From a virus, in IMG/VR virus record IMGVR_UViG_3300045988_174823: a stretch of DNA of 64,000 nucleotides; one strand, 5' to 3'. The notes beneath the pieces were generated by a model, which saw nothing but the letters and a program-made list of their open reading frames with translations, did no database searches and was not told the origin of the DNA. The position numbers were made by a program, and so were the translations under genes. Below are positions 26,600 through 62,136 of this stretch, piece after piece (position 1 is the stretch's first letter; each line of letters starts with the position of its first letter).

Positions 26600-28087
26600 T
26601 TAGTTGGAAGCGCGACCGATGTTGATGATACGAACCATCTTCTTCGGTGCGTACAGGAACGGCGTACCGTACAGCAGCACCATGAAGCGGTATGCGGGCG
26701 ACAGAATCGCCAGGTCCATCTTCATCAGCGGAGCCAGCTGAGCGAACTCGATGACCTCGTTGTCGAACTGTACCAGGAACGCCTGGTCGCAGTCGGGCAG
26801 GAAGTAGTTGTTGTCACGGCACAGATCGCCGGCAGCGCCTGCATAGCCAAGTTTCAGCTCGGCCACCGAAATGTCGAAGATCGGGTAGAACTTGCTGTCC
26901 TTGGTACCGCCTTTCTTCGTGCGGTAAATGCGATAGCCCGTAGCCGGGTGCGCATTGTCCACGATCGAGAACTTGAGATCGACAGCCGATCCTACCGTAA
27001 CGACAACCGGGATCTCGTTAACCACCAGCGACGACTCACCGTGGCGGTTGATGGCAGCAACTGCGTAAACGTAGTCGCCAGCATCCTCCGAATTGAACTT
27101 CGAGGTCGTCACGCCGGGCATAACTGCAGTCGGAGTGTTGGTATCCCACGCGGGAGCAGCAGGCGACTTCGGATGCGTGGACTGAGCGCCAGCCATCTTG
27201 AACGGCGCCTTCTTGAAGAAGACATCGTAGTTGAGGCCGATGCGGCCGAACTGCGAGTCGAATGCCTGAACGCGCTGACCCATGATACCGGCGCTGGTCT
27301 GGGCGGTGTTAGGCTGGATGAACTTGTTGCCATAGAACGTCTTGACGAAGTCCGACAGAACGGCGGGGGGAGCGTACAGCTCGGTTCCGAGACCGTAGTT
27401 CTCGACGATCGAGTTGGCAGCGCTCTCGATGGGATCCTCGGTCAGGCCACGACCGCGAAGGTCGATCACGTTCTCGGAGTTGAGGTAAGCGTCCAGACCG
27501 CTCCATGCGTCCGACTGCAGCTGCTGAGCCAGCAGACCGTTGAACTCCTGCGGGATGATGTCCGAGTTGCCGTAGTACAGCGACTTGTTCAGCTTGCGGA
27601 GAATCCACAGCGTACCGTCCTTGATGGTACGCTCCATGATGTTGCCCACCATCGTGTTGACGAGGGTCATCTGGTGCGTAACGGACTTGGTAACGCCGAG
27701 ATACTTCACGAGCTGAGCCCGGCGGATGTAGATCGAGTCTTCCTCGTCGGGGAGTTCGCCCTCGTTGGTGAAGCCACCGCGGTCAGCACCATACGATGCC
27801 AGCTGGTTGTACTCCTCAACGGTGTTGTAGGCGGCCTTTTTCGGCAGGTTCTTCCAGAGAACGATGTCGCTCTCGCGGAACGTCAGGTGTTTCAGAGTAC
27901 GCTCCAGCGACTCCACCTTCAGCGGAGCACCCGAAGCATCGGTCAAGTTCGTCGTTTGACGACCCGTGATGTCGGTTGCTTCGAGGGCTTTGTTCAGCAT
28001 AGCGACCTCTTCCTGACTGGACGAGCCGTACTGGGCACCACGTGCTTGGATGCCATAGTCGGCAAGATTGATAGAAAGTCTGTCCAT
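26600..28087 (-). CDS. major capsid protein with an internal FN3/Ig-like insertion
   Basis: 495 aa, directly downstream of the protease-scaffold gene, with strong GC3 codon bias and a strong terminator. Residues about 305-405 ('GDYVYAVAAINRHGESS...GYRIYRTKKGG') look FN3-like. Confidence 0.7.
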   Translation of the reverse strand: MDRLSINLADYGIQARGAQYGSSSQEEVAMLNKALEATDITGRQTTNLTDASGAPLKVESLERTLKHLTFRESDIVLWKNLPKKAAYNTVEEYNQLASYGADRGGFTNEGELPDEEDSIYIRRAQLVKYLGVTKSVTHQMTLVNTMVGNIMERTIKDGTLWILRKLNKSLYYGNSDIIPQEFNGLLAQQLQSDAWSGLDAYLNSENVIDLRGRGLTEDPIESAANSIVENYGLGTELYAPPAVLSDFVKTFYGNKFIQPNTAQTSAGIMGQRVQAFDSQFGRIGLNYDVFFKKAPFKMAGAQSTHPKSPAAPAWDTNTPTAVMPGVTTSKFNSEDAGDYVYAVAAINRHGESSLVVNEIPVVVTVGSAVDLKFSIVDNAHPATGYRIYRTKKGGTKDSKFYPIFDISVAELKLGYAGAAGDLCRDNNYFLPDCDQAFLVQFDNEVIEFAQLAPLMKMDLAILSPAYRFMVLLYGTPFLYAPKKMVRIINIGRASN

Positions 28088-28126: not shown

Positions 28127-29668
28127 TTACTCTACTACCTCGTACCCGGTCTCAGCCTTGAGACGGGTAATGATGTTTTTGGGGAGACCGTCAGCAGGAC
28201 GCGCCTCAAACGCCAAAAGCGCATCGCCGTACTCTTTGTCGTAGCCTTTGGCGAACGATGCCTGGTCAAGCAGCGCAGCAACGGCACGGGGATTCTCGCG
28301 GAACGAGATACGAGTGGTGCTGCCACCCTTTTCGATGTCGCCCTTGTCGGCACCCTTAGCAAACGCACGGTCGATAACCGTAGCCGAGCGCAGCGATTTC
28401 GGACGCGGCACCTCGCTGCCGTAGCGTTCCAGTTTAGCGGCGAAGCCCTCAATAACCTCGGTCTGGCCTTTGACGACGTCCTCCAGTTCAGCAATACGCT
28501 TAGCGTCCTCAGAGCGTTTCTGGCGAAGATCGTTCACTAAGACGGCCGTAGCTTTGATGTACGACTTGAAGTCGTTACCAACACCCTGAATAGCTTTCAG
28601 GAGATCAGCGTTATCACCCTTTTTCATCTTGGCACCGTTCTTGTCGCACTGCTCAAAGCCTTCGTCGTCATCCTCGGTTTCTTCTTCAGATTCCTCCTTC
28701 TTGCCTGCCTTGGCATTACGCATGTTGGCGGCGTTGTGACGCGGCTCGTCATCATGGGTTTCGTCCTCCTCGCCCATTTGACCGTCGGCGTCATCACCTT
28801 TCTGCACGTCTTCGGCATCAAAAGCGTTGCCCTCGGGCGCAAGCCCCAAAGCGGCATATGCCTTCTCGATGTCCTCGGAAGTGATGGATTTGCGTTTGTT
28901 CATAACCGATATATTTTTAATTAGTGTGTACACTTCATGCGCGTTCGGTATTGTAATATTTGGAATATCACGGAAGATAGCTTCCATGACGGAAGATTTG
29001 GAAAACGTTTTTTTCGGCTGGCCATCGACTGACTCCGGCATTAACGCCGCACCGGATTCTGTGCTTACGGCCTTTTTCTCGGTTTTGCCACCGCGCTCTT
29101 CGGCATTATCCTCTTCTTCCTCCAAATCCACCTTTATTCCGTCAGCGTCAATCTCCCCCTTTATAATATTCACAAACGTATGTGGATTCTTAGGCATATG
29201 TGTTACTGCAACACCTGTTATTACAGCCTTAACGATCTTGTTGTAAAGGGGTGATTTCTTGTCGTTAGAACCGCGCTTCAGAACCTTTCCTTCGATGGAA
29301 TACCCAAGACGACGCGTTTTACTGTCTTCCTCAAGGGTTTTAGCAAGTTCATAAACTTCATTGGCCATAGGCGATGAAGCATACAAATCGCTTTCAATCC
29401 AAAGCCCCTCGGGGCGGAGTTCGACCTTTGACGGCTCGCCAATAATAGCAGCTGGAGAGTTCTTGGCTTGGTGATGCCAATTAACCATGCCTGAATTCTT
29501 CAGCGGCTCAACATCAAAACCAGAAGGATCCAGATACTCACCATCAGCGTCACGATCCATAGTTGAAGCGATACCGCCAATACGCATAACAGGTTCTCCT
29601 GCTTCGTTCGTAGCTTTTTCAATGCGTCCAATAGGACACCAAAAATTGAATCTATCGTCCTTAAACAT
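28127..29668 (-). CDS. prohead serine protease (HK97/S78-like) fused to an acidic scaffolding domain
   Basis: The N-terminus 'RIGGIASTMDRDADGEYLDPSGF...VNWHHQ...IIGEP...GLWIESDL...LGYSIEGKV' matches the S78 pattern. The C-terminal half is Glu/Asp/Lys-rich and coiled-coil-like. Confidence 0.7.
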   Translation of the reverse strand: MFKDDRFNFWCPIGRIEKATNEAGEPVMRIGGIASTMDRDADGEYLDPSGFDVEPLKNSGMVNWHHQAKNSPAAIIGEPSKVELRPEGLWIESDLYASSPMANEVYELAKTLEEDSKTRRLGYSIEGKVLKRGSNDKKSPLYNKIVKAVITGVAVTHMPKNPHTFVNIIKGEIDADGIKVDLEEEEDNAEERGGKTEKKAVSTESGAALMPESVDGQPKKTFSKSSVMEAIFRDIPNITIPNAHEVYTLIKNISVMNKRKSITSEDIEKAYAALGLAPEGNAFDAEDVQKGDDADGQMGEEDETHDDEPRHNAANMRNAKAGKKEESEEETEDDDEGFEQCDKNGAKMKKGDNADLLKAIQGVGNDFKSYIKATAVLVNDLRQKRSEDAKRIAELEDVVKGQTEVIEGFAAKLERYGSEVPRPKSLRSATVIDRAFAKGADKGDIEKGGSTTRISFRENPRAVAALLDQASFAKGYDKEYGDALLAFEARPADGLPKNIITRLKAETGYEVVE

Positions 29669-32635: not shown

Positions 32636-35014
32636 TTATTTCCTTGTGATTATCTTCGAGCGGTTGAACACAATCATAAATGAGTTGCCGCAGTAATTAC
32701 CATTAGGCTGTATCATGGCGTCGTACCCTTGAAGCGCAGCATACACACCAAGGACTTCGTCGTATGAACGCGAAGATTGGTATATAGCCGCATAAATATC
32801 CTTATCGGGGTCACCGACGCTATTAGAGCTAACTTTGCGCGCTGCGGCACTCTTTTCCTGATAGACCTTGAACGCTTCAGCGCGCTCCTTTTGTAAGCGA
32901 TTCACCTCATCGTCAAGGTTCTTGACAGCTTCTTTCACGGCATCCTCGATTTTACCGTAGTGCTCGCGCATAATCCACCCCTTGAATTGGCGGACAGGAT
33001 AGTTGTACGGGCGCACGAAACCGTTCTTGCGCTTAATAGCATCGTTCTCGTAACGATAGCGCGAAAACACAAATCGCTCTGAAGTGTTAGGCATCTTGAT
33101 GACAAAATCGCCTGTTCCATTACCCTTTTCGGTAATGGTTCCGCCGTTAGCCGTTACCCAACCGCGGAGGTGATTATTCATAAAGTCGTCAAACTTCATA
33201 TATGACGGATTGCCGTCATCGTCAATAGCACCCCAATCGATCACTTGGTCGATTTGAAGCGGAATGTCGGTATATGCCGCGTCATCCCAATGCATAGAGG
33301 TTTTAACCCTTTTCTCGGTGTTGGAGGTGATATTGTGAAGTTCTGACGACAGCTGGTTATAAACGGCTTCGGCTTCTTGTTCTTCTTTCAGAGCCTTCTC
33401 AACTGCAGGAGATTTTCGGGCTGAAAGTTGTTGTATTTCCTTACGAGCATCTTCGACGGTGATGACTTTTGCCGAATCATCCAAAACAGCTTCAATAATA
33501 GCACCATCATCGCTTGCGTAACCGAGTGCGTTCTTATAAGAAGATGTTGATTTGTAGCCTGACGGCGTCTTATTGGCATTGGCTGAATCATTGACGTGAA
33601 AATAGATGCCTTCGCCGCAAACACCTTGTGTACCAAAAAAGCACGTGTCGTTGTACTTAAAATCGTCAGTGTAATACTCCGAATCTGTTCCGCGAGGCTG
33701 TACGCCACGGAACATATGATACTTTGATTTGGCCACTTTGGCCCAGAAAGTGTTATCATCTACAACGTCCGGACGTGCGTCGAAACCACGAGCAGCGCAA
33801 ATGTTAGATAACATTTGCCAACCTACTTGCCTATCGGTATTTGTTAATCGGTCCGTAGGGGTATTGCCATTGACACTCTTGTAAAGGGAATCCAGTTCAT
33901 CTTCCGAGAATTCGCGATACATATCCTCCTCGGACTTCAGGTTACGTGGTTTGACCTTACGATTAGCGCGCTGAATTTTAACTTGATAAATCCCTCGTAT
34001 TCGGTCCAAATCATTGAAACGTCCCTCAATGATAGCACGTATTTTAGATTTGGCGCCGAGTTTTCCAGCGTCAAAAAACGCTAAGATTTCGTCCTTACGG
34101 GCTTTCAAAGCGTCAATCTGGTCGATGAAGTCTTGCGACGTAAGATGGGCAACGATATTCGGATTGTGTTTTATCATACCATCCCAGTCGATCTTGTTGC
34201 CGAACGTCTTAGTCGAACCCTGTGCTCGGTAATTGAACAACCCGCCATTATCGACGCGGTAAACCTTGCCGGCAGCATCTACCAAACAATTGTCGTTTTG
34301 GTATATATCCCAATTGGCTAAAAAGGTGTCAACAACAAAACCCTTAGCCATAGCGGCATAATCCTTAGCCTGGGGTTCTGACACTCCGCGCATGTAGTTA
34401 GAGATAAGCGTCAAATCAGTTCCGTCGTCATACATTTCGTAATCCGGCGTGTCTAATCCAAACAAACTGTACACCTGTGCAACGTAGTATTCCGCGGCGA
34501 CGTGACCGCGGTTAGTGTTCTTTGAACTCTTAACGACAAACTCGCGACCCTTGGCGTCCTTCATCAGGACAGCTCCCGTGGAACCGCCTAATTTCTGTAC
34601 AAAGGTCAGCTGTGAAGGATCAGCCGGGAACATTTCGTTCACCTCCTTCTCCTGTTTAGCCAGTATAGCTTTGGAACGAAAAGCCCCTTTTCCAACAGGT
34701 ATTCCTTGCGGATTCTTGTAAACGCGCCAATCGTACGTCGTCTTTGCATTAGGCGTCAATGTCCAAATATACACCACGCCATCGACTACCTTTGTTTGGC
34801 CAGGCATGATAGCCTTTACAATGTCCGGGTCCTGTTTAACGCCGTGAAGGTGATCATACAACGACTTGGTTACATACAAGCTGTACTCGTAGTCATCGAC
34901 GAACTCGGAACGGGCCTTGTACGCTTCACAGGCTTTCTCCAATACGGCGTCAGAAACAGCACCCTCGGCATTACGGAGGGTGAAAATTTCCAACGCTTTT
35001 CTCAGTTCGTCCAT
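32636..35014 (-). CDS. large multidomain protein: PI3/4-kinase-like atypical kinase domain plus PARP-like ADP-ribosyltransferase-like domain
   Basis: 'GGSTGAVLMKDAKGREFVVK...FLANWDIYQNDNCLVDAAGKVYRVDNGG' resembles the kinase catalytic loop and the DxG/IDNG motif. 'MFRGV...GEGIYFHV...AIIEAVLD' resembles the ART core. Confidence 0.4.
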   Translation of the reverse strand: MDELRKALEIFTLRNAEGAVSDAVLEKACEAYKARSEFVDDYEYSLYVTKSLYDHLHGVKQDPDIVKAIMPGQTKVVDGVVYIWTLTPNAKTTYDWRVYKNPQGIPVGKGAFRSKAILAKQEKEVNEMFPADPSQLTFVQKLGGSTGAVLMKDAKGREFVVKSSKNTNRGHVAAEYYVAQVYSLFGLDTPDYEMYDDGTDLTLISNYMRGVSEPQAKDYAAMAKGFVVDTFLANWDIYQNDNCLVDAAGKVYRVDNGGLFNYRAQGSTKTFGNKIDWDGMIKHNPNIVAHLTSQDFIDQIDALKARKDEILAFFDAGKLGAKSKIRAIIEGRFNDLDRIRGIYQVKIQRANRKVKPRNLKSEEDMYREFSEDELDSLYKSVNGNTPTDRLTNTDRQVGWQMLSNICAARGFDARPDVVDDNTFWAKVAKSKYHMFRGVQPRGTDSEYYTDDFKYNDTCFFGTQGVCGEGIYFHVNDSANANKTPSGYKSTSSYKNALGYASDDGAIIEAVLDDSAKVITVEDARKEIQQLSARKSPAVEKALKEEQEAEAVYNQLSSELHNITSNTEKRVKTSMHWDDAAYTDIPLQIDQVIDWGAIDDDGNPSYMKFDDFMNNHLRGWVTANGGTITEKGNGTGDFVIKMPNTSERFVFSRYRYENDAIKRKNGFVRPYNYPVRQFKGWIMREHYGKIEDAVKEAVKNLDDEVNRLQKERAEAFKVYQEKSAAARKVSSNSVGDPDKDIYAAIYQSSRSYDEVLGVYAALQGYDAMIQPNGNYCGNSFMIVFNRSKIITRK

Positions 35015-35017
35015 AAA

Positions 35018-36769
35018 CTATCCAAACAAAAGGGTTTCTGCTTTTTCAATCGACATATCGTCAGCGGATAACGTACCGAGTTCCGCGTTATGGGCTTTCC
35101 ACGTGTCGGGAATCATATCCTCAGCGCCAAGCGTTTTGGCGCGACGTTTAATCCAGCGGCGAGCCCGTTCAGGATTCTTTGCGTTGCCGGCCAAGCGGAT
35201 GGCATTCTTCAGGTCGGACTTGTTACGAATCGGGAATGAACCATCGGGGAGGGCCTCCTTTTTATCAGCAAGACGCTCACGTTGCTTTTCGGTAAAATCG
35301 GCCTTTTCGAGCGATTCTGCGGAGTCGAGCAGCGCTTCGGCCTTGGCTATCTCATCGGAAGTTTCGACGGGCTGGATGGCCTCGTACACGAATCCTTTCG
35401 TCAGTGCACGTACTGCGGCCCGCTCCCACTCTTTTTGCTTATCACCGATGAGATTGGTCCACTCACCGCCTATCTTGGCCATCCTGTTAGAACGGTCAGT
35501 AGAACGCTTCTCCGATAAGATGGTTCCGAAAGTACGGGTGGTAAACTTAGCAGGGTCGATTTTGTTCTTATTCTTAACGATAAGATCGAACAATTCTTTG
35601 CGTTCCTTTTTATCCTCTTCAGGGTCGTCGAGGTGCGGTTGCTGGGGAATATCCATTTCCTCGTAACGATCCTTCAGAACTTCGATCGTTTCATCGACGG
35701 TAAGATATACCTCCGACGTCAGCGTAGCGCGCGAAATGATGACCTTAGTGTCCTCGTTCTTCGAAAGGTTCACGAGGTCCTTGTTGGTCATGATAATGAT
35801 ACGGCCCGTGAATACGAAATTCGACTTGACGTCTTCCGGGTCGCCGACCACACGCTTACCTGAAGCGGCGGTGGCTTTCTTCATGATGGAAGCCAAGTCG
35901 GCGCGAGTGATAACGGAGTCGGTATCATCGAACAGAAGAATCTTACCGTTGTGTGCTTTCAGTACACCCAGCAGCTGCTTCTTGGAGTTGATGTCGCCGA
36001 GCTCAACGTAGTCATAGTCGCCGTCGCCTGGAGAATCGGTTTCAGCGTCGAATGGACGTTTATTGAGCAGTTCGGCAATTTTCTTGAAACCGTACGATTT
36101 ACCGATACCTGCGCCGCCAGCCGAGATCATGAACCGATGTTCCTTGTTATCGAGGAACTCAAGATACTGACGGTTAAGATCATACATAACCTCAACAGGC
36201 GGTTCGTAATCGGGATCCTTTTTCTTCATCGCATAGACGAAGCGGTCGTAAGCGATACGGTCTTGACGGCTCTGAAGTTTATTAAACTTTTTCTGAATGC
36301 GCGGGTCTTCGGGGTTAAGAAACCAGTCCTCGACGATTTCACCATCGTCGTTTCCACCCTCGCCGTCGTTAATGTCCACTTGAGCTCCGGTACTGGTAGG
36401 CGCAACAGGATCCTGTTTGGCAGTCATCTTAAGCAACGTAGATAACGTTCCGCTGGTATCCACCTGCGACATATCGGCATTACGGGATTTCAGTTCGTTG
36501 TAAGCGATATGTCGCAGCTGCGCATTGCCCTTGGGGTTGTTGACAACTTTCAAAAGGTTATCATCGCTGGTCTTCTTGGCCCACGCTTCAAGACTCGTCG
36601 CAGGACCCGAATCGCCCGATTCTTTACCAGTATCGGCGCTGGGCTTGGGTTTAGCGTTCTTATCGACACGCCAGTTGAACTTTCCAGGCTTGTACTCCGT
36701 CCACACCCACGGCTGGGTGGGGTGATGGTCGCCGACGTTGTGCTTTGCTTTTTGAATAATATCTGACAT
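35018..36769 (-). CDS. P-loop (AAA-like) ATPase domain protein, putative virion-associated
   Basis: Walker A 'SAGGAGIGKSYG' and Walker B 'KILLFDDTD'. A C-terminal 'LPDGSFPIRNKSDLKNAIRLAG' motif is present. Confidence 0.55.
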   Translation of the reverse strand: MSDIIQKAKHNVGDHHPTQPWVWTEYKPGKFNWRVDKNAKPKPSADTGKESGDSGPATSLEAWAKKTSDDNLLKVVNNPKGNAQLRHIAYNELKSRNADMSQVDTSGTLSTLLKMTAKQDPVAPTSTGAQVDINDGEGGNDDGEIVEDWFLNPEDPRIQKKFNKLQSRQDRIAYDRFVYAMKKKDPDYEPPVEVMYDLNRQYLEFLDNKEHRFMISAGGAGIGKSYGFKKIAELLNKRPFDAETDSPGDGDYDYVELGDINSKKQLLGVLKAHNGKILLFDDTDSVITRADLASIMKKATAASGKRVVGDPEDVKSNFVFTGRIIIMTNKDLVNLSKNEDTKVIISRATLTSEVYLTVDETIEVLKDRYEEMDIPQQPHLDDPEEDKKERKELFDLIVKNKNKIDPAKFTTRTFGTILSEKRSTDRSNRMAKIGGEWTNLIGDKQKEWERAAVRALTKGFVYEAIQPVETSDEIAKAEALLDSAESLEKADFTEKQRERLADKKEALPDGSFPIRNKSDLKNAIRLAGNAKNPERARRWIKRRAKTLGAEDMIPDTWKAHNAELGTLSADDMSIEKAETLLFG

Positions 36770-36804: not shown

Positions 36805-37608
36805 TTACACTTCTACAGCGTCAAAGTCAATATCAAATTTCTTATATACAATGCGCAACTCGGGCACACCATTGATCGGCTTCTTCTTTTCATCAACACG
36901 AGCGTTAAGCGGCCAACGCTTCAAGATGATATCATGCGCACGTTGAACGCGCTCACGACGTTCGTACACATCCTGGAGACCGCCACCTTGTGTAGCTTCC
37001 TTGTTCATCTTACTCTGGAGCAAGAACCGTACGAATCGCGCATACACGATGCCGAGATACATACATTTTAACGAATAGTCGATATCACATTTCAACTCCA
37101 ACCGCTCATCAAAGTCCAACTCTAACGTGCGAAGACCCTTGAACACGATAAGGTGTGGAATACCGCCGTATTTGAAACGCGGACTAACGTCGATGCAATT
37201 CCAATCAAAAGCACTTTTGCCCATGGTGCCATATTCGAAGTCGGTTTTCATCACCTCTCGGTCGAATTCGTTGAAGAATTCAGCCAACTCTTCATGGGTT
37301 TTCAACGACAGTCCGCATTTGGCTTCACCGTCAATTGAGTAGAAGAAGTTGGCGATATCGTCATCCATCACCACAACGGGATACCCCTCGCGCAAGTAGG
37401 TATTCTTGCAGAAATTGACTACGTAGCTGTAGCCACGATTCGAGGCTGGAAGCACAATGAGGCGTTCGCGCTCATGCCCGGCTTCAACATATTTTTCAAC
37501 ATCCTCTTTTTCTACCACGATGTGGTAATCCACGCCGCCCTTTTTCAACAATCGAGTCGTGACGCATTTAGGGCGGTTTTTAGACACGACAAAGAATTGA
37601 CAGTTCAT
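36805..37608 (-). CDS. GT-A-like glycosyltransferase (paralogue of 55500-56315)
   Basis: Start placed at the ATG at 37608, 2 nt after the upstream TGA; the track ORF starts at 37638. DxD-like 'VVVMDDDI' is present. Blocks shared with the paralogue are 'KCDIDYSL...QGGGLQDVY...RWP' vs 'KEDFALAC...AAGGCSVY...TFP'. Confidence 0.45.
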   Translation of the reverse strand: MNCQFFVVSKNRPKCVTTRLLKKGGVDYHIVVEKEDVEKYVEAGHERERLIVLPASNRGYSYVVNFCKNTYLREGYPVVVMDDDIANFFYSIDGEAKCGLSLKTHEELAEFFNEFDREVMKTDFEYGTMGKSAFDWNCIDVSPRFKYGGIPHLIVFKGLRTLELDFDERLELKCDIDYSLKCMYLGIVYARFVRFLLQSKMNKEATQGGGLQDVYERRERVQRAHDIILKRWPLNARVDEKKKPINGVPELRIVYKKFDIDFDAVEV

Positions 37609-37610
37609 AC

Positions 37611-38291
37611 TCAAAATGGTAAGTCGCCCTCGTACCAAATTTCCTCAGGCGGGTTCTGTTCTATAAAACGTTGATAATTGTCCAGTGTACTTTCTAACGA
37701 TGGATAAAACCTCATGAACAACTCCCACTTAACGTCAAACATATCATCACACGATACGCGGCGTTTCATCAGTAGGCTTTCGCTATTATAGCACTGCACG
37801 CAGACCTGACGACGGCCTCGTAGTACGTACGAATAGGGAAAGTCGCGATAGTATTCCGCACCAGACGCTGTATTATACACCACATCATGGATAAACTGGT
37901 TGAACGGGTGTCCTGCGCCGAGAGGTGCCAGTAACGTATAACCGGGATTGCGGTGCATAAACTTCCGCAAATGATCGCGAAGCGCTTGTTCGGCGAAATT
38001 AAGGCCGTCATTCCCGAATTTGGCGCGTAAGTACGTATAGACGCTCTCATAATTACAGTCCTTGGAATGGGCCTGAAAATCGCTACAACGGACATTTTCT
38101 AACTCCAGGTCCAGACAATCCATGGCTATACCCAGAAAATTGTACAGAAGCCGCTGCTCTGAAACGCGCTTTGGGTCGCTATCTACAGTAAGCACCCGAA
38201 CGTCATATTCGGGTGCTACTAAAACGTGACAAGCACTCATCAGGAGATCACCCGCGTGTGGCTCGACACAGAGGTATTTTATTTTTCCCAT
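37611..38291 (-). CDS. PIG-L/LmbE-like putative deacetylase (divergent)
   Basis: 'YLCVEPHAGDLLMSACH...DVRVLTV' compares with the AHPDDE motif, and 'GAGHPFNQFIHDVV' with the HPDH motif. Confidence 0.4.
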   Translation of the reverse strand: MGKIKYLCVEPHAGDLLMSACHVLVAPEYDVRVLTVDSDPKRVSEQRLLYNFLGIAMDCLDLELENVRCSDFQAHSKDCNYESVYTYLRAKFGNDGLNFAEQALRDHLRKFMHRNPGYTLLAPLGAGHPFNQFIHDVVYNTASGAEYYRDFPYSYVLRGRRQVCVQCYNSESLLMKRRVSCDDMFDVKWELFMRFYPSLESTLDNYQRFIEQNPPEEIWYEGDLPF

Positions 38292-39238
38292 GGCCGTTTG
38301 TATATCTTCTCGACGCAGGGGCCGTCCTTCGATACGTCCTCAGCCATACGGCGAATTTCTGGCGTGATAGGCGGGAGCGTTTTCTTACCCATCTTATCAG
38401 GCAGGAAACCGACACGGACGCTGACATGTGTACACCCCTGACACGGACGGAACCGACGATCGTTGTTGTACAGCATCACGCGGGCAGCATGAAAGCGCGG
38501 ATGGTTCCAGAGGTCTTCGATAGGCATGTCGTGGATGTTGGCGATAGGGTACTCGCCGCGAAAGTCGTCGCAGCACAAGCACACCTGGCCGTTCCAACGC
38601 ACATCCAGTTCGCGGAACGGAAAAGTACATCGTTTGTTGTTGAACGAGTCGTCGAGCGGGAACGCTGCGCCACAGTGGTTAGCCAGACGACGCGTCATCT
38701 TGTTGGTATCGTCTTCGGCGATAGGCGGCAACAGACAGATACGGCGGCCCTGCTTGGGGTAGTAGTACGGAACGCCCGGTTCCAGCGTAACGACGTTGTA
38801 TTTCTCGATGTCGATTTTCTCGACGAAATTCCAGTCACCCTTAGCCGTATAGCAGTCCACCAGAATATCATTCATGCCGGCTTCAAAAAGACGGTCTAAA
38901 TATTCCGACGTATCCTTGGCGTGGTTCATACCGTACCCGTTGCTGTACATATGAAATACGGCTTTGGGCAGGTGTTTACGGAACGTAGCCACGATGTCGA
39001 TGAATGCGGGGTTGAGCGTCGGTTCGCCGTGCATAGCGAATACGAACTTACATTTCCACCCTACGCGGGCTACCTCTGAAGCGATACGCTCGGCGGTTTC
39101 AACGGTCATGAAATTCCACGGCTTAGTGCCTTTTTCGCGCATGCCGTGGAGACCGCAAAACGAACAACCCAGATTACACCCCTCCGTCGGTTCAATCTGC
39201 ATAGTGAACGGAGGGTCTTGTACGATTTTGTTTTTCAT
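38279..39238 (-). CDS. radical SAM enzyme with C-terminal SPASM/twitch-like Cys cluster
   Basis: 'EGCNLGCSFCG' matches CxxxCxxC. The C-terminus carries 'CTFPFRELDVRWNGQVCLCCDDF...CQGCTH'. Confidence 0.8.
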   Translation of the reverse strand: MKNKIVQDPPFTMQIEPTEGCNLGCSFCGLHGMREKGTKPWNFMTVETAERIASEVARVGWKCKFVFAMHGEPTLNPAFIDIVATFRKHLPKAVFHMYSNGYGMNHAKDTSEYLDRLFEAGMNDILVDCYTAKGDWNFVEKIDIEKYNVVTLEPGVPYYYPKQGRRICLLPPIAEDDTNKMTRRLANHCGAAFPLDDSFNNKRCTFPFRELDVRWNGQVCLCCDDFRGEYPIANIHDMPIEDLWNHPRFHAARVMLYNNDRRFRPCQGCTHVSVRVGFLPDKMGKKTLPPITPEIRRMAEDVSKDGPCVEKIYKRPWEK

Positions 39239-41268
39239 TATTTGGTAACTTTAATGTTAAGTTTCACGTTCTTTAACTTTGGGTTCTTAAACTGGCGTTT
39301 GATAGGCTTGATGAAAGCGCGGGTTGCAGGGTCCCAATCAAAGCCATCAGGAACGTGGTTGACTGTACACCGGCAATTGTGAACCACAATTCCATCGGCA
39401 ATGTAGCTTTCATCTTCGGCAACTGAAATATTGTACAATTTAGTGTACTTTTTAGATCTCGGAACTTGTTTAATGTATAAAACCTTCACACCACGCGAAA
39501 CTATTTGCCCCCGGTGATTTTTGAACAGCCGTTTCAGGCGGTTGTAAACCATATCGCCGTGGTTGTTTATCTCATCTTCAGTGAAGCGGAATGTCTCATA
39601 GCCGTAACACTCCAAAATGTCCTTATCGCGGTTGGAATCGTATTCCGGATCGTTGTGCCATTTTTCGCCGTCAGCCTCCAAAACAATCTTGAGATCGGGA
39701 ATCAGTAAATCGGGGAAATACCCCACAACATCGTTGCGGAACTTTCCGTTATTTTTCAAGAACACCCCTGTCTTAGCTTCAACTCCTAACGACTTACACA
39801 GATACTCCAACTTGCGCTCGATGAACGACCGTTTCTTACCATTGGTAGAATTAGTCTTCTTCAGCGCCTCAGCCATCCAAGGATACTCACCTTGATATTT
39901 ATCTTCGATAGCTTTTCTTGCTCTGGTGGTAAGTTTCTGACGATCGACAGCACTCATATTGGCATAACGAACAGCCATCTCTTCTTTGACTTTCTTACTC
40001 ATGTAAGAACGGAACTCTGTGTCTTGCCATTGCGAGACGCACTGTTCGCTCCGGTGACAAGCTATACACAGCCCCCTCTCCAAAAGAGTATCGCTGGCTG
40101 AAACGTATATTGGCATAAACGAACCGCATTTTTCACAACAAACACCTTCGATTGTTATCAAATCGCCTGTTTTCAATGAAGCAGCCTCTCGCCATTCACC
40201 GTTTGAAAGAATTGGATGATTTCCTGTTATACGACGCACCTTCCGTACCTTTTTACGCCCTAAAAGGTTTTTGACGGCATAATAGATGTCGTACAGGGGT
40301 TCATCCTTATGATCGTGAATAATCACTTCCGTAACAGGCCTAAACCTCCCTCGGTGAGTCAAAACCATATCCCCTTTCTTTAGAGAAGATATGTTTCTCC
40401 ATCCGTTGATGGTGTACACCTTTGTAGCCGGATTATTGAAACAATAGGGGTGCGTTGGGTCAATCGTAGGGAGCCATTCTGCCACCTTACGACCGATGTT
40501 GTTACCGTTAGCGATAAGGTCTGCCAAACGGAACAGTTTCGGTTTCGAGGTAGGGTCTTCGGGGTCTTCTAAGTACAACTCCCGGCACTTAGCGCACGCG
40601 CCTGGATAGACGTCGAAATACACTTTGGCGTCAGGACCGTGTTGCTTGAAAATACTTTCGGCACGGCCCACGTTGTAGGCTTCGTGTAGAAGGTAGTACG
40701 CAATACGCAGCCAATCGCGTCCCCAGTCTTGGGTAAGGTTTCCGAGTTCGCTGGCTATATACCGGGCTCCCTTACGGAGTTGAACAGCTTGAATGGCCTT
40801 GTCTTTTATTTGTTGACGTATTTCTGATTGTTGACGGAAATTCGATTTGAGTACAGCGTTGCGTGTTCCGGTGACGATACGATTACCAAGCGACGTGATG
40901 TCGGTATAGGCACGATTCTTGAGGTAGTTGAGCGCGTTTTCTTCCTGTTCGGTAAGCGGAACAAAGTTTCCCGATTTCAAGAACTGGAGAAACTGCTTGT
41001 AATTCATCTTCTTGGCGCGAGTGTCGCCAATTGCTTCGGCCAGTATTCCAAACAAAAAGGCGTGTTCGATGATGCCCTTTGAGTTCTTGTACTTATCGAC
41101 GTTGACCCCTGAAGCTACCAAGATATCAATTTCAGACTGCGTGAGGTAGTCCAATCCGACGTGCTTGGCAATAAAGAGATATTGCCAACGCCGGAGAATA
41201 CCGACCATGTCGTCTATTTGACGGTTGTTGAAAATCATAACTTTTCGACGTCTTTTCGGGGAATCCAT
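39238..41268 (-). CDS. Mu-F / SPP1-gp7-like head morphogenesis protein interrupted by an intein
   Basis: The exteins give '...YPGACAKCRELY...PTHPY|CRCTVNHVP', which reconstitutes the Mu-F family CxxC and HPxCRC motifs. Confidence 0.75.
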   Translation of the reverse strand: MDSPKRRRKVMIFNNRQIDDMVGILRRWQYLFIAKHVGLDYLTQSEIDILVASGVNVDKYKNSKGIIEHAFLFGILAEAIGDTRAKKMNYKQFLQFLKSGNFVPLTEQEENALNYLKNRAYTDITSLGNRIVTGTRNAVLKSNFRQQSEIRQQIKDKAIQAVQLRKGARYIASELGNLTQDWGRDWLRIAYYLLHEAYNVGRAESIFKQHGPDAKVYFDVYPGACAKCRELYLEDPEDPTSKPKLFRLADLIANGNNIGRKVAEWLPTIDPTHPYCFNNPATKVYTINGWRNISSLKKGDMVLTHRGRFRPVTEVIIHDHKDEPLYDIYYAVKNLLGRKKVRKVRRITGNHPILSNGEWREAASLKTGDLITIEGVCCEKCGSFMPIYVSASDTLLERGLCIACHRSEQCVSQWQDTEFRSYMSKKVKEEMAVRYANMSAVDRQKLTTRARKAIEDKYQGEYPWMAEALKKTNSTNGKKRSFIERKLEYLCKSLGVEAKTGVFLKNNGKFRNDVVGYFPDLLIPDLKIVLEADGEKWHNDPEYDSNRDKDILECYGYETFRFTEDEINNHGDMVYNRLKRLFKNHRGQIVSRGVKVLYIKQVPRSKKYTKLYNISVAEDESYIADGIVVHNCRCTVNHVPDGFDWDPATRAFIKPIKRQFKNPKLKNVKLNIKVTK
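39376..40443 (-). mobile_element. intein (356 aa) carrying a Zn-ribbon and a Vsr/DUF559-type PD-(D/E)xK nuclease domain
   Basis: It starts with 'CFNNPATKVYTINGW', has block B 'ITGNHPIL', and ends 'IADGIVVHN' followed by +1 Cys. The insert carries 'CCEKCG...CIACH' and 'YFPDLLIPDLKIVLEADGEKWHNDPEYDSNRDKDILECYGYETFRFTEDEI'. Confidence 0.8.
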
Positions 41269-47551: not shown

Positions 47552-47836
47552 TTAGCGTGAATATACGTAGGTCTTACGGTCAGCCCACACGAAATTATAA
47601 CTCATATCCCCCTGAGGATACTCGGTAATGGTAATACCATCAGCAGTGGTTTCCCGCTCGATGCGCCATCCTGCCTGCTGTTGACCTGTGCCAATAGGCG
47701 CATAACCGCGGTAGATAACGTCGCCCCCTGAGGCGTCAACAATCGGTTTCGGCATAGCATCGCTCAGCAATTGGACAATGGGCGCGGTGTTTTTCTCGTT
47801 ACTCGTCATGGTGTATTGCTTTTTGTAAGTATTCAT
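47552..47836 (-). CDS. hypothetical small virion-module protein
   Basis: 94-aa ORF overlapping the portal gene 3' end by 38 nt. Confidence 0.45.
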   Translation of the reverse strand: MNTYKKQYTMTSNEKNTAPIVQLLSDAMPKPIVDASGGDVIYRGYAPIGTGQQQAGWRIERETTADGITITEYPQGDMSYNFVWADRKTYVYSR

Positions 47837-49574
47837 CGAATGCAGCTACGAGAGGATTGGACTCGCGTGCCTTCATAGTTTCTTCTTGATCACCCTCAGC
47901 GTAAAGGTCAAACGGATTTCCTGGCTGAGCGGTATCGTCTTCTTCCTCTTCGTCGCCAGCCACGGGTTGATCAGCAGGGCCTCCAGCTTCCATCCCCATA
48001 CCAGCAGCCTCTTCAAACGGATTGCCTCCGCCCATACCGCCCATTGCGGCCTGTTGCTGTTGTTGCTGCTTGGCGCTGATGGCTTGCTGTATAACAGAGT
48101 TTTCGATAGTATCGCCACCCTTTTCTTCGCCGATAGCCGGGAGGTCCCACTTCTCGCGAATTTCGTCCACGGTCTGGAAAGCCTGGAGACGTTTGATGTC
48201 CATATCCAGTTCCTCAGAGATGGTCATTCCGTTGAGGCCCATGAATACGAACTCGAAGTCGGGGTTGATTTGCTCGACGATGAACTTGTTAACCTTACGT
48301 TGGATGAATTTCAGCATCGGGTAAAGACCCTTGTCCTTCGACTGCTCCATGCGCTGCTTTTGGCCGTCGCCGAACGTTAGGCCACTGCCATTGGAACGCG
48401 AAATATCCCAGCCAATTTCCGTAGGGTCAATGCAGAATACTGCACAGGCGATTTTGATCAGATATTCCATCCACGAGTTATACTCCATATCGCGGTTGTT
48501 CTTCTGAAGGTCAACCCAGTCGATATCTCCCTCAACGACAGGCGTCTTCCATGACTGCATAACACCCGATATCATGGCCTGCCATTGCTGCTTGAACTGC
48601 TGAAGCGAGGCTTCGTTCACGTTACCTTTGATACGCAGAAGACCTTTCGGAGCCGAACCCTGTGAGAAGAAGCGGCGGTTGTACTCGTCGCCCCAAAGCA
48701 TCGATGTCACAACGTTGATTAACTCTTCCAACTCAGAGTTTCCGTAACCGTTAGCGTAAATCGACGTGGTCGGATTGCGAATTCCAAAGCACAACTCCCA
48801 TGGGTAGAACTGCGCTACCTTGGCCGTCTGGTACACCTGGACGTAGGCCGGATAATAGCCATCAACCTTAGGTCCCCAGTTCTGGCGATCGTCCATCATC
48901 GCTCCTTCAAAGTAGGGGTTGTTGTACTCGCCATCGAAATACGATTCCGCCAGGCGGAATGTAGCGGCATCAACGGCCTGGAAGCGGACCAGTTTGCCGC
49001 GGCGGTTGCGAATGCACTCAAACGTCATCTGATCGAACGTTAGCGAGTCGTCCACAATCTTACGTATAAATTCGTCAAACTCGTCGCCGTCCCACATAGC
49101 GGTATCGCCACAGTTGAGGATGAAGTCGGTGATGGAAGACGCAATTTTGCGGTCCTGCGTGTCCATCTTCTGCTCTTGGCCGAACTTAGGCTTGCGTCGA
49201 ATAACAAATCCCGTTGAATAGCGGTCGGCCTGCGGTTCGGCGAAGTCAGCTATCTGGTTTTTACGGGTCTTGATAATCGAATTAATAATGGGGGTGCGAC
49301 TCATCCGGCGTAACGTTTCGTACGAAAGCGAAAACGGCTTATCCTTATATCCTAAAAACGAGTTGAACTCCAAAGGATCGATCAGATATGCCTTCGGGGC
49401 AACGTTAGCAGGCTTGTGTTGCTGGTTTAATATTTCAGCAGCTTTGAGTATATCAGACGGGCTCTCGCTGCGCATCGCACGCTCTAACAACAGCGATTTG
49501 CGTATCGTCAAAGCCTGCATGGCGCGTTCCACCGATTCCAATCTTTCTTTCACACCGGACATAATTGTTTTCAC
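47799..49574 (-). CDS. portal protein
   Basis: 591 aa. It carries the segment 'TLRRMSRTPIINSIIKTRKNQIADF...', an acidic Gln/Glu-rich C-terminus, and lies in the head module. Confidence 0.65.
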   Translation of the reverse strand: MKTIMSGVKERLESVERAMQALTIRKSLLLERAMRSESPSDILKAAEILNQQHKPANVAPKAYLIDPLEFNSFLGYKDKPFSLSYETLRRMSRTPIINSIIKTRKNQIADFAEPQADRYSTGFVIRRKPKFGQEQKMDTQDRKIASSITDFILNCGDTAMWDGDEFDEFIRKIVDDSLTFDQMTFECIRNRRGKLVRFQAVDAATFRLAESYFDGEYNNPYFEGAMMDDRQNWGPKVDGYYPAYVQVYQTAKVAQFYPWELCFGIRNPTTSIYANGYGNSELEELINVVTSMLWGDEYNRRFFSQGSAPKGLLRIKGNVNEASLQQFKQQWQAMISGVMQSWKTPVVEGDIDWVDLQKNNRDMEYNSWMEYLIKIACAVFCIDPTEIGWDISRSNGSGLTFGDGQKQRMEQSKDKGLYPMLKFIQRKVNKFIVEQINPDFEFVFMGLNGMTISEELDMDIKRLQAFQTVDEIREKWDLPAIGEEKGGDTIENSVIQQAISAKQQQQQQAAMGGMGGGNPFEEAAGMGMEAGGPADQPVAGDEEEEDDTAQPGNPFDLYAEGDQEETMKARESNPLVAAFDEYLQKAIHHDE

Positions 49575-49599: not shown

Positions 49600-49923
49600 T
49601 CAACACAACAGTTTCAAAATGTCGTTCCGCGCTGTTTTACGAATTATCAATGCCTGATGAAGAAGGTCGCCCCATACCGCTATCTGGTAACCATTCCACG
49701 TGTAATAATCCGTTTGATCGTCGTACGAGCCATTCCATTCACCGTCGTGGCGTATGTCAGCGACGAGGCGTTTAAAACGCGCTGTTTCTTCGGTGGTAAG
49801 GGGTGATATGAAAGTGCCGACGACTACTAATCGTGCGGCACTTGTGGAAAGATCATCGGCCAAAATCTGAAAGTCGATGCCCATAAAATCGCCCGTTTCC
49901 AACGGCGTGTGAAAGGTTATCAT
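49600..49923 (-). CDS. hypothetical protein
   Basis: 107-aa ORF with a 4-nt overlap upstream. Confidence 0.45.
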   Translation of the reverse strand: MITFHTPLETGDFMGIDFQILADDLSTSAARLVVVGTFISPLTTEETARFKRLVADIRHDGEWNGSYDDQTDYYTWNGYQIAVWGDLLHQALIIRKTARNDILKLLC

Positions 49924-50930
49924 TTGCCTATCAATTTACAAGCTCTTGGTTCAAATGTAGAGCGTTGTTTACCTTCACCAATCTTCATTTTCCAGTACTT
50001 TTGATACTCACACAGCCACATTTCCACCTGGTGAAGTGATATCTCGCCCGACGGCGTGACGTAATACCCCGATTCAAGTTTGTGCCAGTGTAGGTACGGA
50101 AAATCGCCAAACGAAGATAACGCTGCCTGTGCCTCATCACGCAGGCGATATATACCGTCAATTTGACGCTTCAACGATGGGAACACCAACCGCAGCCCTA
50201 TGGACGCACCAGGCCCCACATTGGTATAGTCATCCTGGGTAAAGTGCATGAAACGGCGATAGGTATAGCGCGGTATGTAGGTGAAGTCTTGGTAGAATTC
50301 GTGAGCGATAAATGTCGCCGACGAAGGTAACTCCTGAAGGAACTTGATAATCTGCCCAGGATCGGTAGCCGTCAACACCGTCCGCATCAGTTTACCTAAC
50401 TTACGATGAAGCGTAGGCACAACCAAATGCGTGTAGCAGTAGTCGCGCGGTTTTCCAGGTGTGGCCATCGAATTGATGAGGTAGGCCGTGGTGTAGGGGT
50501 TGTTGCCTGTGGCACGGTACGACGTTATCATTTCCGCAAAGCGGTCCTCGTCGTATTGGTTATAATCCGGAATGCCCGCTCCCCAACCGTACTTTTCACG
50601 AGCATATTCAAACGTTTCAGGGTTGTTAAAATACCGGAACACCATCATCTTCCAAACCAGATTCGTCAGCGTTAATTCGTCATCCAGCAAGATATTACGT
50701 ATCTGCCACTGCGAATTACGATCCAGTTCACGATACACATTGGTGAATTTGTAATCGCGTAATATAGGATCATCAGTCCACGGACGCGGTTTCTGATCCA
50801 GGAACCGTCGCTTCCATATCATTTGGCGCTCAAACATCGTGCGGAAGAACTCGTGATAGTGTTCCTCGCTGACGTCAAGTGCGGCGTCAGGTAATTTATC
50901 AGCCCAAGGGTAATGATCAAATTTCGCCAT
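49920..50930 (-). CDS. putative DNA base (thymidine) hypermodification protein, aGPT-Pplase / 5-hmdU-DNA-kinase helical-domain family
   Basis: 'ERQMIWKRRFLDQKPRPWTDDPILRDYKFTNVYRELDRNSQW' matches my memory of the family's signature. That signature was recalled, not searched. No P-loop is present. Confidence 0.45.
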   Translation of the reverse strand: MAKFDHYPWADKLPDAALDVSEEHYHEFFRTMFERQMIWKRRFLDQKPRPWTDDPILRDYKFTNVYRELDRNSQWQIRNILLDDELTLTNLVWKMMVFRYFNNPETFEYAREKYGWGAGIPDYNQYDEDRFAEMITSYRATGNNPYTTAYLINSMATPGKPRDYCYTHLVVPTLHRKLGKLMRTVLTATDPGQIIKFLQELPSSATFIAHEFYQDFTYIPRYTYRRFMHFTQDDYTNVGPGASIGLRLVFPSLKRQIDGIYRLRDEAQAALSSFGDFPYLHWHKLESGYYVTPSGEISLHQVEMWLCEYQKYWKMKIGEGKQRSTFEPRACKLIGK

Positions 50931-54092: not shown

Positions 54093-54383
54093 TCAACAAT
54101 CCATCACCAAATTACCTTTCAACTCCAATTCGTACAACCGTTCGGCATCAGGTTTGGCATAGCAGAATATCAGCTTACCACCACCTGCACACGCCAACGC
54201 TTGGCGATACACCTCCTTTATACGCGCGAATTCCTCACTGCGATAAAAATCATAATCGCTAACACACAACTCCCACCACCGCTCTTGATGAGACGCCCAG
54301 GCTATGACACCTGGGCGTTCGGCTTCGATACGCTTTACAGCGGCTAATAGTAACAAGGTATATTTCTGGCGATCGGCTTTCAT
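54093..54383 (-). CDS. hypothetical protein
   Basis: 96-aa ORF with a 4-nt overlap upstream. Confidence 0.45.
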   Translation of the reverse strand: MKADRQKYTLLLLAAVKRIEAERPGVIAWASHQERWWELCVSDYDFYRSEEFARIKEVYRQALACAGGGKLIFCYAKPDAERLYELELKGNLVMDC

Positions 54384-61810: not shown

Positions 61811-62098
61811 CTATTTCTTAGCCTTTTTGCCGTAGGCGCGGAAACTGTACGCCGGACGGAACTGGATAGTCTTGTAGGGGTCAGTGGGGGCCGTAACACC
61901 CGTCTGCGGGTTACGTGCCATACGCGACGGTTGGTCCTTGGGGACGAACTTTCCCACCTTACCGATAGGGATGATTTCGTCCTTGTCGCGAACCTCCTCG
62001 GTGAGAATCTCTTCCAAAGCACGGACGAAAGCAATCGCCTGGGCCTTGGTAGTGCCGGCCTTGGCGGCCAAAGCACCGTAAAAATCTTGCACTTTCAT
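61811..62098 (-). CDS. HU/IHF-family DNA-binding protein
   Basis: Start set at the ATG at 62098 ('MKVQDFYGALAAKAG'), because the track extension overlaps the upstream gene. 'IPIGKVGKFVPKDQPSRMARNPQTGVTAPTDPYKTIQFRP' matches the HU beta-arm signature (R-N-P-x-T-G). Confidence 0.8.
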   Translation of the reverse strand: MKVQDFYGALAAKAGTTKAQAIAFVRALEEILTEEVRDKDEIIPIGKVGKFVPKDQPSRMARNPQTGVTAPTDPYKTIQFRPAYSFRAYGKKAKK

Positions 62099-62136
62099 TG
62101 TACGATAATTTTGATTGTTGATAAATATGGGGTTTG

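Follow-up and report, generated by a model that had tools for sequence, protein, structure and literature searches.

The stretch analysed here (the window) comprises 64,000 nucleotides of IMG/VR virus record IMGVR_UViG_3300045988_174823 and covers the structural half of the genome, about 100 kb in size, of an uncultured gut phage; all of its long ORFs lie on the minus strand. Between positions 36805 and 39238, three consecutive genes encode a radical SAM enzyme (38279-39238, 319 aa), a protein with a predicted LmbE/PIG-L fold (37611-38291, 226 aa) and a glycosyltransferase of the TAGT family, here called TAGTa (36805-37608, 267 aa from the ATG at 37608). The TAGTa ORF is open back to a TTG at 37638 and was originally listed as 36805-37638; judged from the sequence, the ATG, located 2 nt past the stop codon of the 226-aa gene, is most likely the start. 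An earlier interpretation drawn from the DNA letters alone (the sequence-only reading) had described the three genes as consecutive and translationally coupled, and this was borne out: the stop codon of an upstream MuF-like gene and the radical SAM start codon overlap as TAATG, 13 nt are shared by the radical SAM gene and the 226-aa gene, and a gap of 2 nt separates the latter from TAGTa. Given this tight coupling, the three-gene observation is real. The genes are intact in 20 to 24 close relatives (the middle one is full-length in 24) and under purifying selection, with ratios of non-synonymous to synonymous substitution rates (dN/dS) of 0.03 for the radical SAM gene, 0.02 for TAGTa and a higher 0.15 for the middle gene; intactness and selection are far beyond chance. 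A scan of the sequence for consensus promoters and terminators gave no excess of sites and was uninformative.

The radical SAM enzyme matched the Pfam families Radical_SAM (E-value 1.4e-15; score of 58 bits, cut-off 29.5) and SPASM (2.6e-12), the latter match covering the half-motif common to twitch domains, as well as the NCBIfam model 'twitch domain-containing radical SAM' (9e-11). Among 14 homologues, the cysteines of the CxxxCxxC motif (C21, C25 and C28) are invariant, and so are C204, C222, C223, C266 and C269. Conservation of C204, C222/C223, C266 and C269 points to one auxiliary cluster instead of the two of a full SPASM domain, and the seven-cysteine SPASM motif, which holds two auxiliary [4Fe-4S] clusters, was not found. 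The sequence-only reading was therefore right in naming a CxxxCxxC radical SAM enzyme, whereas its SPASM-like C-terminal cluster is better described as a four-ligand twitch type. In the PDB, BtrN was matched at 7e-9 with the single sequence and at 3.6e-18 with the family profile (BtrN chain residues 27-261), the next family for the profile being anaerobic sulfatase maturase (anSME) at 2.7e-6. The BtrN match spans the core and the twitch domain, was found solely by hidden Markov model methods and is of low identity. C204, C222/C223, C266 and C269 would align with the auxiliary-cluster cysteines of BtrN, which we take to be C169, C188, C232 and C235 after allowing for a 20-residue tag. We predict a BtrN-like twitch-domain enzyme with one auxiliary cluster and dehydrogenase activity; BtrN itself acts on a free small molecule, an aminocyclitol, in which it oxidises a secondary alcohol. 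Relatives of the enzyme number 280 at E-values of 1e-5 or below, mostly on contigs of 90-125 kb.

TAGTa scored 51.5 bits (1.6e-13; cut-off 27.5) with the Pfam family TAGT (PF20691) and also matched phrog_842, 'beta-glucosyl-HMC-alpha-glucosyltransferase' (2e-17). Its D82-D83-D84 forms part of an M-D-D-D-I motif that is invariant among six homologues, in agreement with the earlier call of a GT-A-like transferase with a DxD motif; a sequence search of the PDB gave no match. In a published survey, the T6-type TAGT was assigned the addition of a second glucose to glucosyl-5-hydroxymethylcytosine (glucosyl-5-hmC) DNA. From its family membership, TAGTa is predicted to be a GT-A glycosyltransferase of this DNA-associated group, transferring a sugar onto a hydroxymethylpyrimidine of DNA. 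A second gene of the family, TAGTb (55500-56315, minus strand, 271 aa), overlaps a dUTPase gene of the window and matched Pfam TAGT at 1e-13 and phrog_842 at 1e-27; it is highly divergent, without BLAST similarity to TAGTa, and directly adjoins the radical SAM gene in other phages. The presence of two TAGTs per genome suggests a disaccharide or two linkages. No TET/JBP dioxygenase was matched among the scanned proteins of the window and its flank or in precomputed Pfam lists; instead of the genomic association of TAGT with TET/JBP, the partners here are thymidylate synthase (TS) homologues, as in T6.

Searched alone, the 226-aa middle protein had no match in Pfam, PHROG or NCBIfam, and a word-indexed protein search yielded only 11 relatives. 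Starting from a small alignment, an exhaustive search by HMMER retrieved 86 cluster representatives, and a profile of 43 sequences matched the LmbE-type deacetylases Dbv21 (1.7e-9) and Orf2* (1.2e-7) over nearly the full length, together with diacetylchitobiose deacetylases, almost full-length. Pfam PIG-L was matched by 20 of the 43 family members, the best at 3.7e-16. The AlphaFold model built from the 43-sequence alignment reached a predicted local distance difference test (pLDDT) score of 94.9, and Foldseek ranked three chains of the teicoplanin deacetylase 2xad first (9e-8 to 3e-7, template modelling score about 0.6), with all other matches at 1e-3 or above. According to both profiles and model, the protein has the LmbE/PIG-L fold that had been proposed for it. 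Foldseek matches to the short-chain dehydrogenase fold (0.01 or above), which came from a poor model based on eight sequences (pLDDT 71), were discarded as artefacts.

Whether the fold still supports deacetylation in this phage is a separate matter. LmbE enzymes carry an H-x-D1-D2 motif and a distal histidine, the two histidines and D2 binding the metal and D1 acting as general base, and the H164N mutant of the teicoplanin deacetylase Orf2* is inactive (PMC4101496). The consensus of the phage family is P-H-S-D-D … G-H-P-F-H, and aspartate at the general-base position and histidine at the distal position are each found in 37 of the 43 members. The window protein and its clade instead read P-H-A-G-D … G-H-P-F-N. 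The 'PHAGD' string of the sequence-only reading does align with H-x-D-D (H12-A-G14-D15), but glycine replaces the general-base aspartate; its 'GHP..F.HD' string marks the second motif, but this is H128-P-F-N131 instead of H-P-x-H, with asparagine in place of the zinc-binding histidine (the third metal ligand), and conservation does not extend to the downstream 'HD'. Members of the clade also vary at H12, where some have glutamine, and at H128, where others have glutamine or asparagine. The intact H-x-D-D/H motif is present in relatives L049, L054, L055 and L106. Since the general base and one metal ligand are missing, the latter change being equivalent to the inactivating H164N, deacetylation by the window copy is doubtful, and so is the deacetylated cationic adduct that had been imagined for this phage. 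We read the gene, from its sequence, as having lost catalysis and kept another role, probably as a non-catalytic subunit that binds the sugar or partners the radical SAM enzyme. Loss of the residues as a consequence of a switch to TAGTa was considered and rejected: close relatives with the degenerate motif carry a 482-aa gene in place of TAGTa, and fusions of PIG-L to TAGTa homologues have the motif intact.

To place the trio in a wider context, 78 IMG/VR loci with radical SAM homologues were collected and their ORFs labelled with profiles built in the analysis. Among the 58 diverse, more distant loci, in which the radical SAM homologue is 38-67 % identical, a glycosyltransferase lies within 3 kb of it in 52, a PIG-L homologue is found in 33, and a TS, deoxynucleoside monophosphate (dNMP) kinase, dUTPase or HMUDK_hel gene lies within 8 kb in 26; all 24 close relatives share the order radical SAM, PIG-L and then a transferase. 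The trio thus co-occurs in relatives, and the radical SAM family is linked to genes of nucleotide metabolism in at least four unrelated genome layouts. The commonest layout comprises a MuF-like gene, radical SAM, PIG-L, a 482-aa gene, a P-loop protein and a protein of about 790 aa, and a second one differs in having a PIG-L::TAGT fusion. In PolA phages of about 50 kb, TAGT, radical SAM, a dNMP kinase and a TS homologue follow one another within the replication module. Radical SAM, TAGT and dUTPase genes are found near HMUDK_hel and portal genes in a fourth arrangement, and a fifth, compact one, e.g. that of L106, reads HMUDK_hel, TAGT, PIG-L, radical SAM, radical SAM, TAGT; the PIG-L motif of L106 is intact (P-H-A-D-D … H-P-D-H), and a TS homologue follows downstream after a few further genes. 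Gene fusions tie the three functions together as well: protein P0135 joins radical SAM to PIG-L, and in P0142 and the products of L064, L074 and L101, PIG-L is fused to a TAGTa homologue (45-54 % identical, C-terminal half).

Several individual loci deserve mention here. IMGVR_UViG_3300035510_000313 (L069 and L082) carries two radical SAM paralogues, one in the order MuF, radical SAM, PIG-L, 482-aa gene and the other in the order radical SAM, TAGTb, dUTPase; together with the tandem radical SAM genes of L106, this arrangement suggests that some lineages carry out two radical steps in succession. In a more distant relative of 124 kb (L049, 11686-12393; L098; L095), the order is PIG-L, radical SAM, an N6/N4 DNA methyltransferase and the 482-aa gene, the embedded methyltransferase being a hint at DNA as the substrate. 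The 199-kb record IMGVR_UViG_3300029572_000001 holds two different copies of the module, separated by about 100 kb (L006/L016 and L033/L038; PIG-L identities of 98 % and 81 %), and gives the impression of two related phage genomes joined end to end, not of a single one.

The transferase position differs between otherwise very similar phages. In L010, L012 and L042, the radical SAM protein is about 90 % identical to that of the window and PIG-L has the same degenerate motif, with the 482-aa gene taking the place of TAGTa. Exchange of the transferase between close relatives suggests that the sugar is under diversifying pressure. The 482-aa product is named 'glycosyltransferase involved in cell wall biosynthesis' by the Joint Genome Institute (JGI) and matched Pfam Glyco_transf_4 at 4e-4 in one member and Glycos_transf_1 at 9e-3 in another; a PDB sequence search gave no match, and an assignment to the GT-B fold is weak. 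Should the product be GT4-like, then the majority of family members would possess a set of N-acetylglucosamine (GlcNAc) transferase, LmbE deacetylase and BtrN-like radical SAM enzyme.

Further genes in and around the window bear on the nature of the base. The dUTPase or dCTP-deaminase-like gene (54979-55503, minus strand; Pfam dUTPase 1.2e-11, DCD 6e-6) would supply dUMP, and an HMUDK_hel protein (PF18723, 4.5e-52), a marker of 5-hydroxymethyl-deoxyuridine (5-hmdU) hypermodification systems, is encoded at 49920-50930 on the minus strand. A contig from a sister phage, IMGVR_UViG_3300045988_168225, whose radical SAM protein is 100 % identical to that of the window, extends past the window's end and there encodes a 405-aa TS homologue, a YfbR-like 5'-deoxynucleotidase and a DnaE-type polymerase. 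In the TS family, asparagine at the pyrimidine-specificity position marks uracil-type and aspartate cytosine-type enzymes. The 405-aa homologue has asparagine (G-L-P-T-N-I-F), i.e. is uracil-type, and its best PDB match is the hydroxymethylase MilA, the preference over ThyA being slight, whereas the TS partner in the PolA phages has aspartate (G-V-P-Y-D-M-F) and is cytosine-type. Since the pair of radical SAM enzyme and glycosyltransferase is found with TS homologues of both types, the sugar and not the base is indicated as the substrate of the radical SAM enzyme.

The HMUDK_hel protein itself calls for some caution. It has no Walker A motif, matched the phage Nachito aGPT-Pplase1 at 6e-28 and Ab18 ORF13, which adjoins a TS homologue, at 1e-16 in phmmer searches, and had no match in a PDB sequence search. 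The missing P-loop and the homology to the annotated aGPT-Pplase clade 1 rule it out as the 5-hmdU DNA kinase, and two ORFs upstream of its gene, considered as kinases, were rejected as well. The Nachito homologue (L166, 2369-3463) is deposited as 'aGPT-pyrophosphorylase clade 1', while the Pfam family is named 'HMUDK_hel, 5-hmdU DNA kinase helical domain'; both names denote the same family, and the latter can mislead towards kinase calls.

Taken together, we consider it rather probable that the trio is a late-expressed cassette by which the phage hypermodifies its own DNA with a tailored sugar. Gene structure, family and fold assignments, conserved linkage, fusions and selection are established by the analysis, whereas what the enzymes act on, in which order and by which chemistry is inferred, as follows. 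During replication, thymidine would be wholly or partly replaced by 5-hydroxymethyl-dU, presumably by means of the uracil-type TS homologue, the dUTPase and the HD 5'-deoxynucleotidase. TAGTa and/or TAGTb would then take a sugar from a nucleotide sugar and attach it, within DNA, to the base's 5-hydroxymethyl group or to a first sugar that is already present, as their family membership suggests. The BtrN-like enzyme would use the 5'-deoxyadenosyl radical to take a hydrogen from the attached sugar, with its auxiliary cluster as electron sink, most likely turning a secondary alcohol into a ketone; alternatively, the sugar may be epimerised, dehydrated or decarboxylated. In most relatives, the intact LmbE/PIG-L enzyme would N-deacetylate an N-acetylhexosamine (HexNAc) to give a cationic aminosugar, whereas in the window phage the protein probably persists as the non-catalytic subunit described above. 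The product would protect the DNA from host nucleases. With all three family assignments holding, the multistep glycan-type modification envisaged by the sequence-only reading stands, and of the two targets that it left open, DNA is the most likely one, virion protein being less favoured: TAGT is a DNA-associated family, and radical SAM and TAGT genes recur beside TS, dNMP-kinase and dUTPase genes in unrelated phage backbones. More tentative, and in our estimate slightly short of an even chance, is the broader proposal that on-polymer remodelling of an hmU- or hmC-linked sugar by a BtrN-like radical SAM enzyme, with LmbE deacetylation in most lineages, constitutes a new class of DNA hypermodification, in effect aminoglycoside-type chemistry on DNA, found in a widespread, as yet uncultured group of gut phages (probably infecting Bacteroidales) and in several unrelated lineages, in which a swappable transferase changes the sugar from one near-identical phage to another and the window deacetylase has become a non-catalytic subunit.

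A number of points weigh against DNA hypermodification by such a pathway. The modification is predicted from genes, the window PIG-L copy has lost its general base and a metal ligand, and the matches that would make the 482-aa gene a glycosyltransferase are weak. The 405-aa TS homologue could be an ordinary thymidylate synthase. The P-loop 5-hmdU kinases of Nachito and Ab18 had no phmmer match at an E-value of 0.01 or below in the window or related loci, and a Walker A scan of about 90 kb, all but some 7.5 kb of the genome, found only DnaB, a RecA-like protein and a 583-aa protein, the latter being the sole P-loop protein apart from those of replication and recombination. For the clade-2 aGPT-Pplase, i.e. 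the amino-acid:DNA transferase (AADT), Ab18 ORF09 was without a match, and no such Pfam family appeared in the scans. With neither a P-loop kinase nor a clade-2 aGPT-Pplase detected, the canonical kinase-then-substitution route of thymidine hypermodification would be absent, and the proposed steps give no part to the HMUDK_hel protein; a model in which the hydroxymethyl group is glycosylated directly is simpler. Furthermore, the radical SAM and PIG-L proteins might act on a nucleotide sugar before transfer, and the location of the cassette between head-morphogenesis genes and those of probable packaged proteins would also suit a protein target.

The first of these two alternatives arrives at the same glycosylated base by another order, the radical SAM and PIG-L proteins building an unusual nucleotide-sugar donor and the TAGT transferring the finished sugar; we regard it as unlikely. 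Published phage DNA-glycosylation clusters pair glycosyltransferases with enzymes that modify nucleotide sugars, e.g. epimerases, the free small-molecule substrate of BtrN also fits a donor-first order, and the linkage data are compatible with either order. However, the surroundings of the module showed neither a nucleotidyltransferase nor a sugar kinase, and the fusion of PIG-L to the transferase in P0142, L064, L074 and L101 fits transfer followed by trimming. Characterised LmbE enzymes, BtrD among them, likewise act after transfer, on GlcNAc attached to an aglycone and not on uridine diphosphate (UDP)-GlcNAc (PMC4101496).

That the cassette glycosylates and tailors a capsid, fibre or ejected protein and so alters virion stability or recognition is decidedly improbable. 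Virion glycosylation is known from some mycobacteriophages, peptide maturation is common among the SPASM/twitch radical SAM enzymes of the NCBIfam list, and the cassette is translationally coupled to the MuF-like gene and followed by large proteins with a common N-terminal motif that hints at packaging. The sequence-only reading had noted the location between putative packaged enzymes and the Mu-F gene, but a place beside head genes is no argument for a protein target, since the same enzymes occur within modules of nucleotide metabolism in sister lineages. In other phage lineages, orthologous pairs of radical SAM and glycosyltransferase genes are found well away from structural genes, within replication or nucleotide modules, and associate with TS homologues of either pyrimidine specificity; the DNA-associated TAGT family of the transferase also speaks against a protein. 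Moreover, the closest structural relative of the radical SAM enzyme is a sugar/cyclitol dehydrogenase, not a peptide maturase, and there is no ORF for a precursor peptide because there are no intergenic gaps. Finally, modification of a host envelope glycan (for superinfection exclusion or receptor masking) or synthesis of a diffusible aminoglycoside-like molecule, as the resemblance of the gene set to butirosin/neomycin and mycothiol chemistry and the JGI cell-wall name of the alternative transferase might suggest, is highly implausible, given that no aminotransferase is annotated in the genes examined, that no exporter or gene resembling 2-deoxy-scyllo-inosose (2-DOI) synthase was noticed (no search was aimed at them), that the radical SAM family, with one 10-kb contig in 185,579 species genomes, appears restricted to viruses, and that the module is tightly linked to genes of nucleotide metabolism.

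Modification of DNA by the proposed cassette would share features with several known systems. In the glucosylation of 5-hmC by T-even phages, the T2/T6 TAGT belongs to the same GT-A family (PF20691 and phrog_842), and a TS homologue makes the base before replication and glycosylation follows, which is the logic proposed here. In contrast to T-even phages, which lack a radical SAM or LmbE partner, the window phage has both, and its base is probably 5-hmU instead of 5-hmC, given the asparagine in the TS homologue. The TET/5mYOX-glycosyltransferase clusters and base J (JBP and JGT) likewise glycosylate a hydroxymethylpyrimidine in DNA after replication; on 5hmC, HexNAc and multi-sugar products were seen experimentally, and some phage DNA-glycosylation clusters are placed near structural genes. 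Unlike in the TET/JBP systems, neither a TET/JBP dioxygenase nor a cytosine methyltransferase was seen here, and the hydroxymethyl group probably derives from the TS homologue.

With the thymidine hypermodification of phages M6, ViI, SP10, PhiW-14 and PaMx11 (5-HMUDK with aGPT-Pplase/AADT and, in part, radical SAM, pyridoxal phosphate or flavin adenine dinucleotide enzymes; Lee et al. 2018, 2021), the window would share the logic of a 5-hmdU precursor, a protein of the HMUDK_hel/aGPT-Pplase clade 1 type adjoining head genes, a radical SAM enzyme in a DNA-base pathway and a combinatorial set of tailoring genes. The P-loop kinase and the clade-2 aGPT-Pplase common to all of those systems were not found here, however, and the predicted appended group is a sugar, whereas theirs is an amino acid or polyamine. 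M6 gp53, the single known case of radical SAM chemistry in DNA modification, resembles spore-photoproduct lyase, whereas the radical SAM enzyme of the window is BtrN-like with a twitch domain.

The three enzyme classes, i.e. GlcNAc-type transfer, LmbE deacetylation and oxidation of a sugar-like alcohol by a twitch radical SAM enzyme, are those of the butirosin/neomycin and mycothiol/bacillithiol pathways, where BtrM, MshA and BshA are GT4 GlcNAc transferases and BtrD, MshB and BshB LmbE deacetylases; BtrM, BtrD and BtrN all belong to the butirosin pathway. Relatives of the window phage, with a probable GT4-like transferase and an intact LmbE motif, resemble this set, whereas the window itself has a GT-A transferase and an LmbE protein without the catalytic motif; the predicted acceptor is a DNA base instead of a cyclitol or thiol precursor. 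The best full-length structural and profile matches of the middle family, Orf2* and Dbv21, are the teicoplanin and A40926 deacetylases, which act on GlcNAc on a large aglycone. They measure 270-273 aa against 226 aa for the window protein and differ from it at the two substituted catalytic positions.

No cultured phage in a collection of 50,697 phage records carries the radical SAM, PIG-L or TAGTa gene of the module: neither a megablast search with the region nor tblastn searches with TAGTa and the middle protein gave a match, and the sole remote match of the radical SAM enzyme was a 23 %-identical 'BtrN protein' of Campylobacter phages, whose neighbourhood of several radical SAM enzymes, an amidinotransferase and an aminotransferase marks that cluster as unrelated. 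Among 185,579 species genomes, the only match was a 10-kb contig binned with a Bacteroidales metagenome-assembled genome, which is either mis-binned or a hint at the host. In agreement with the earlier remark that the trio was not recognised as a phage pathway, no description of it was found in the literature searched. Full-text searches gave no paper linking radical SAM enzymes or LmbE deacetylases to DNA glycosylation, although an earlier computational study may have mentioned it; in the phage DNA-glycosylation papers searched, radical SAM enzymes are not mentioned and a deacetylase is mentioned once, in passing, in one of them. TAGT and HMUDK were reportedly defined by Iyer et al. in 2013. 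Glycosylation of hydroxymethylpyrimidines in phage DNA is thus of a kind already known; what would be new are two classes of tailoring enzymes not found described there.

The surroundings of the cassette (all on the minus strand) are those of a phage structural region, with genes for the large terminase (56335-59052), portal (47799-49574), head protease (28127-29668) and major capsid protein (26600-28087), the nearest relatives of the latter being those of Bacteroides phages DAC19-23 (48 %), followed by Herelleviridae including SP-10. The MuF-like head protein upstream of the radical SAM gene (39238-41268), so named from its HPYCRC motif only, is interrupted at 39376-40443 by an intein of about 356 aa (Pfam Intein_splicing, Hint) with a DUF559/Vsr-like endonuclease. 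The insertion point lies exactly within the conserved H-P-Y|C-R-C motif, and relatives L014, L018 and L049 have an intein-less gene (about 311 aa), i.e. the intein shows a presence/absence polymorphism. In the sister genome L112 (10001-14489), the DnaE-type polymerase is split into ORFs of 567 and 691 aa by a 250-aa ORF with a GIY-YIG-like N-terminus, and another ORF (L164, 12699-13577) has a NUMOD3 motif. Homing endonucleases seem to be common in the lineage of the window phage.

Directly downstream of TAGTa follow the 583-aa Walker A protein (35018-36769; phrog_1250 and a weak AAA_30 match) and a 792-aa protein (32636-35014), both without a clear Pfam assignment. They always come after the transferase slot, and for the 583-aa protein this synteny is kept in all type-I loci. 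The 583-aa protein has the Walker A sequence GGAGIGKS and an N-terminal 'WVWTEYKPGKFNWRV' motif, which also begins a Peptidase_M90-like protein of L049 and may be a signal for capsid packaging; the PDB held no sequence match for the 583-aa protein. Immediately downstream of the TAGTb-dUTPase pair, a ferritin/rubrerythrin-like di-iron protein (54380-54976) could be linked to the iron supply or to an oxidative step of the base pathway. An HU-like DNA-binding protein (61811-62233), a DEDDh exonuclease (60331-60999) and a 5'-3' (FEN-type) exonuclease (52194-53186), all ordinary-looking, are placed upstream of or among the packaging genes, i.e. nucleic-acid enzymes are interspersed with structural genes.

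If true, radical tailoring of sugars, and probably aminosugars as well, would join the natural chemistry of DNA and would account for the escape of abundant gut phages from restriction and possibly from clustered regularly interspaced short palindromic repeats (CRISPR) systems. Genomes modified in this way would likely be under-recovered or mis-called in sequencing, and the enzymes could serve the site-selective derivatisation of DNA. The swap of the transferase among phages with about 90 % identical neighbouring genes would be a natural experiment on the diversification of DNA glycans driven by an arms race, and the degenerate deacetylase would show cleanly how an enzyme becomes a pseudoenzyme inside a conserved pathway.

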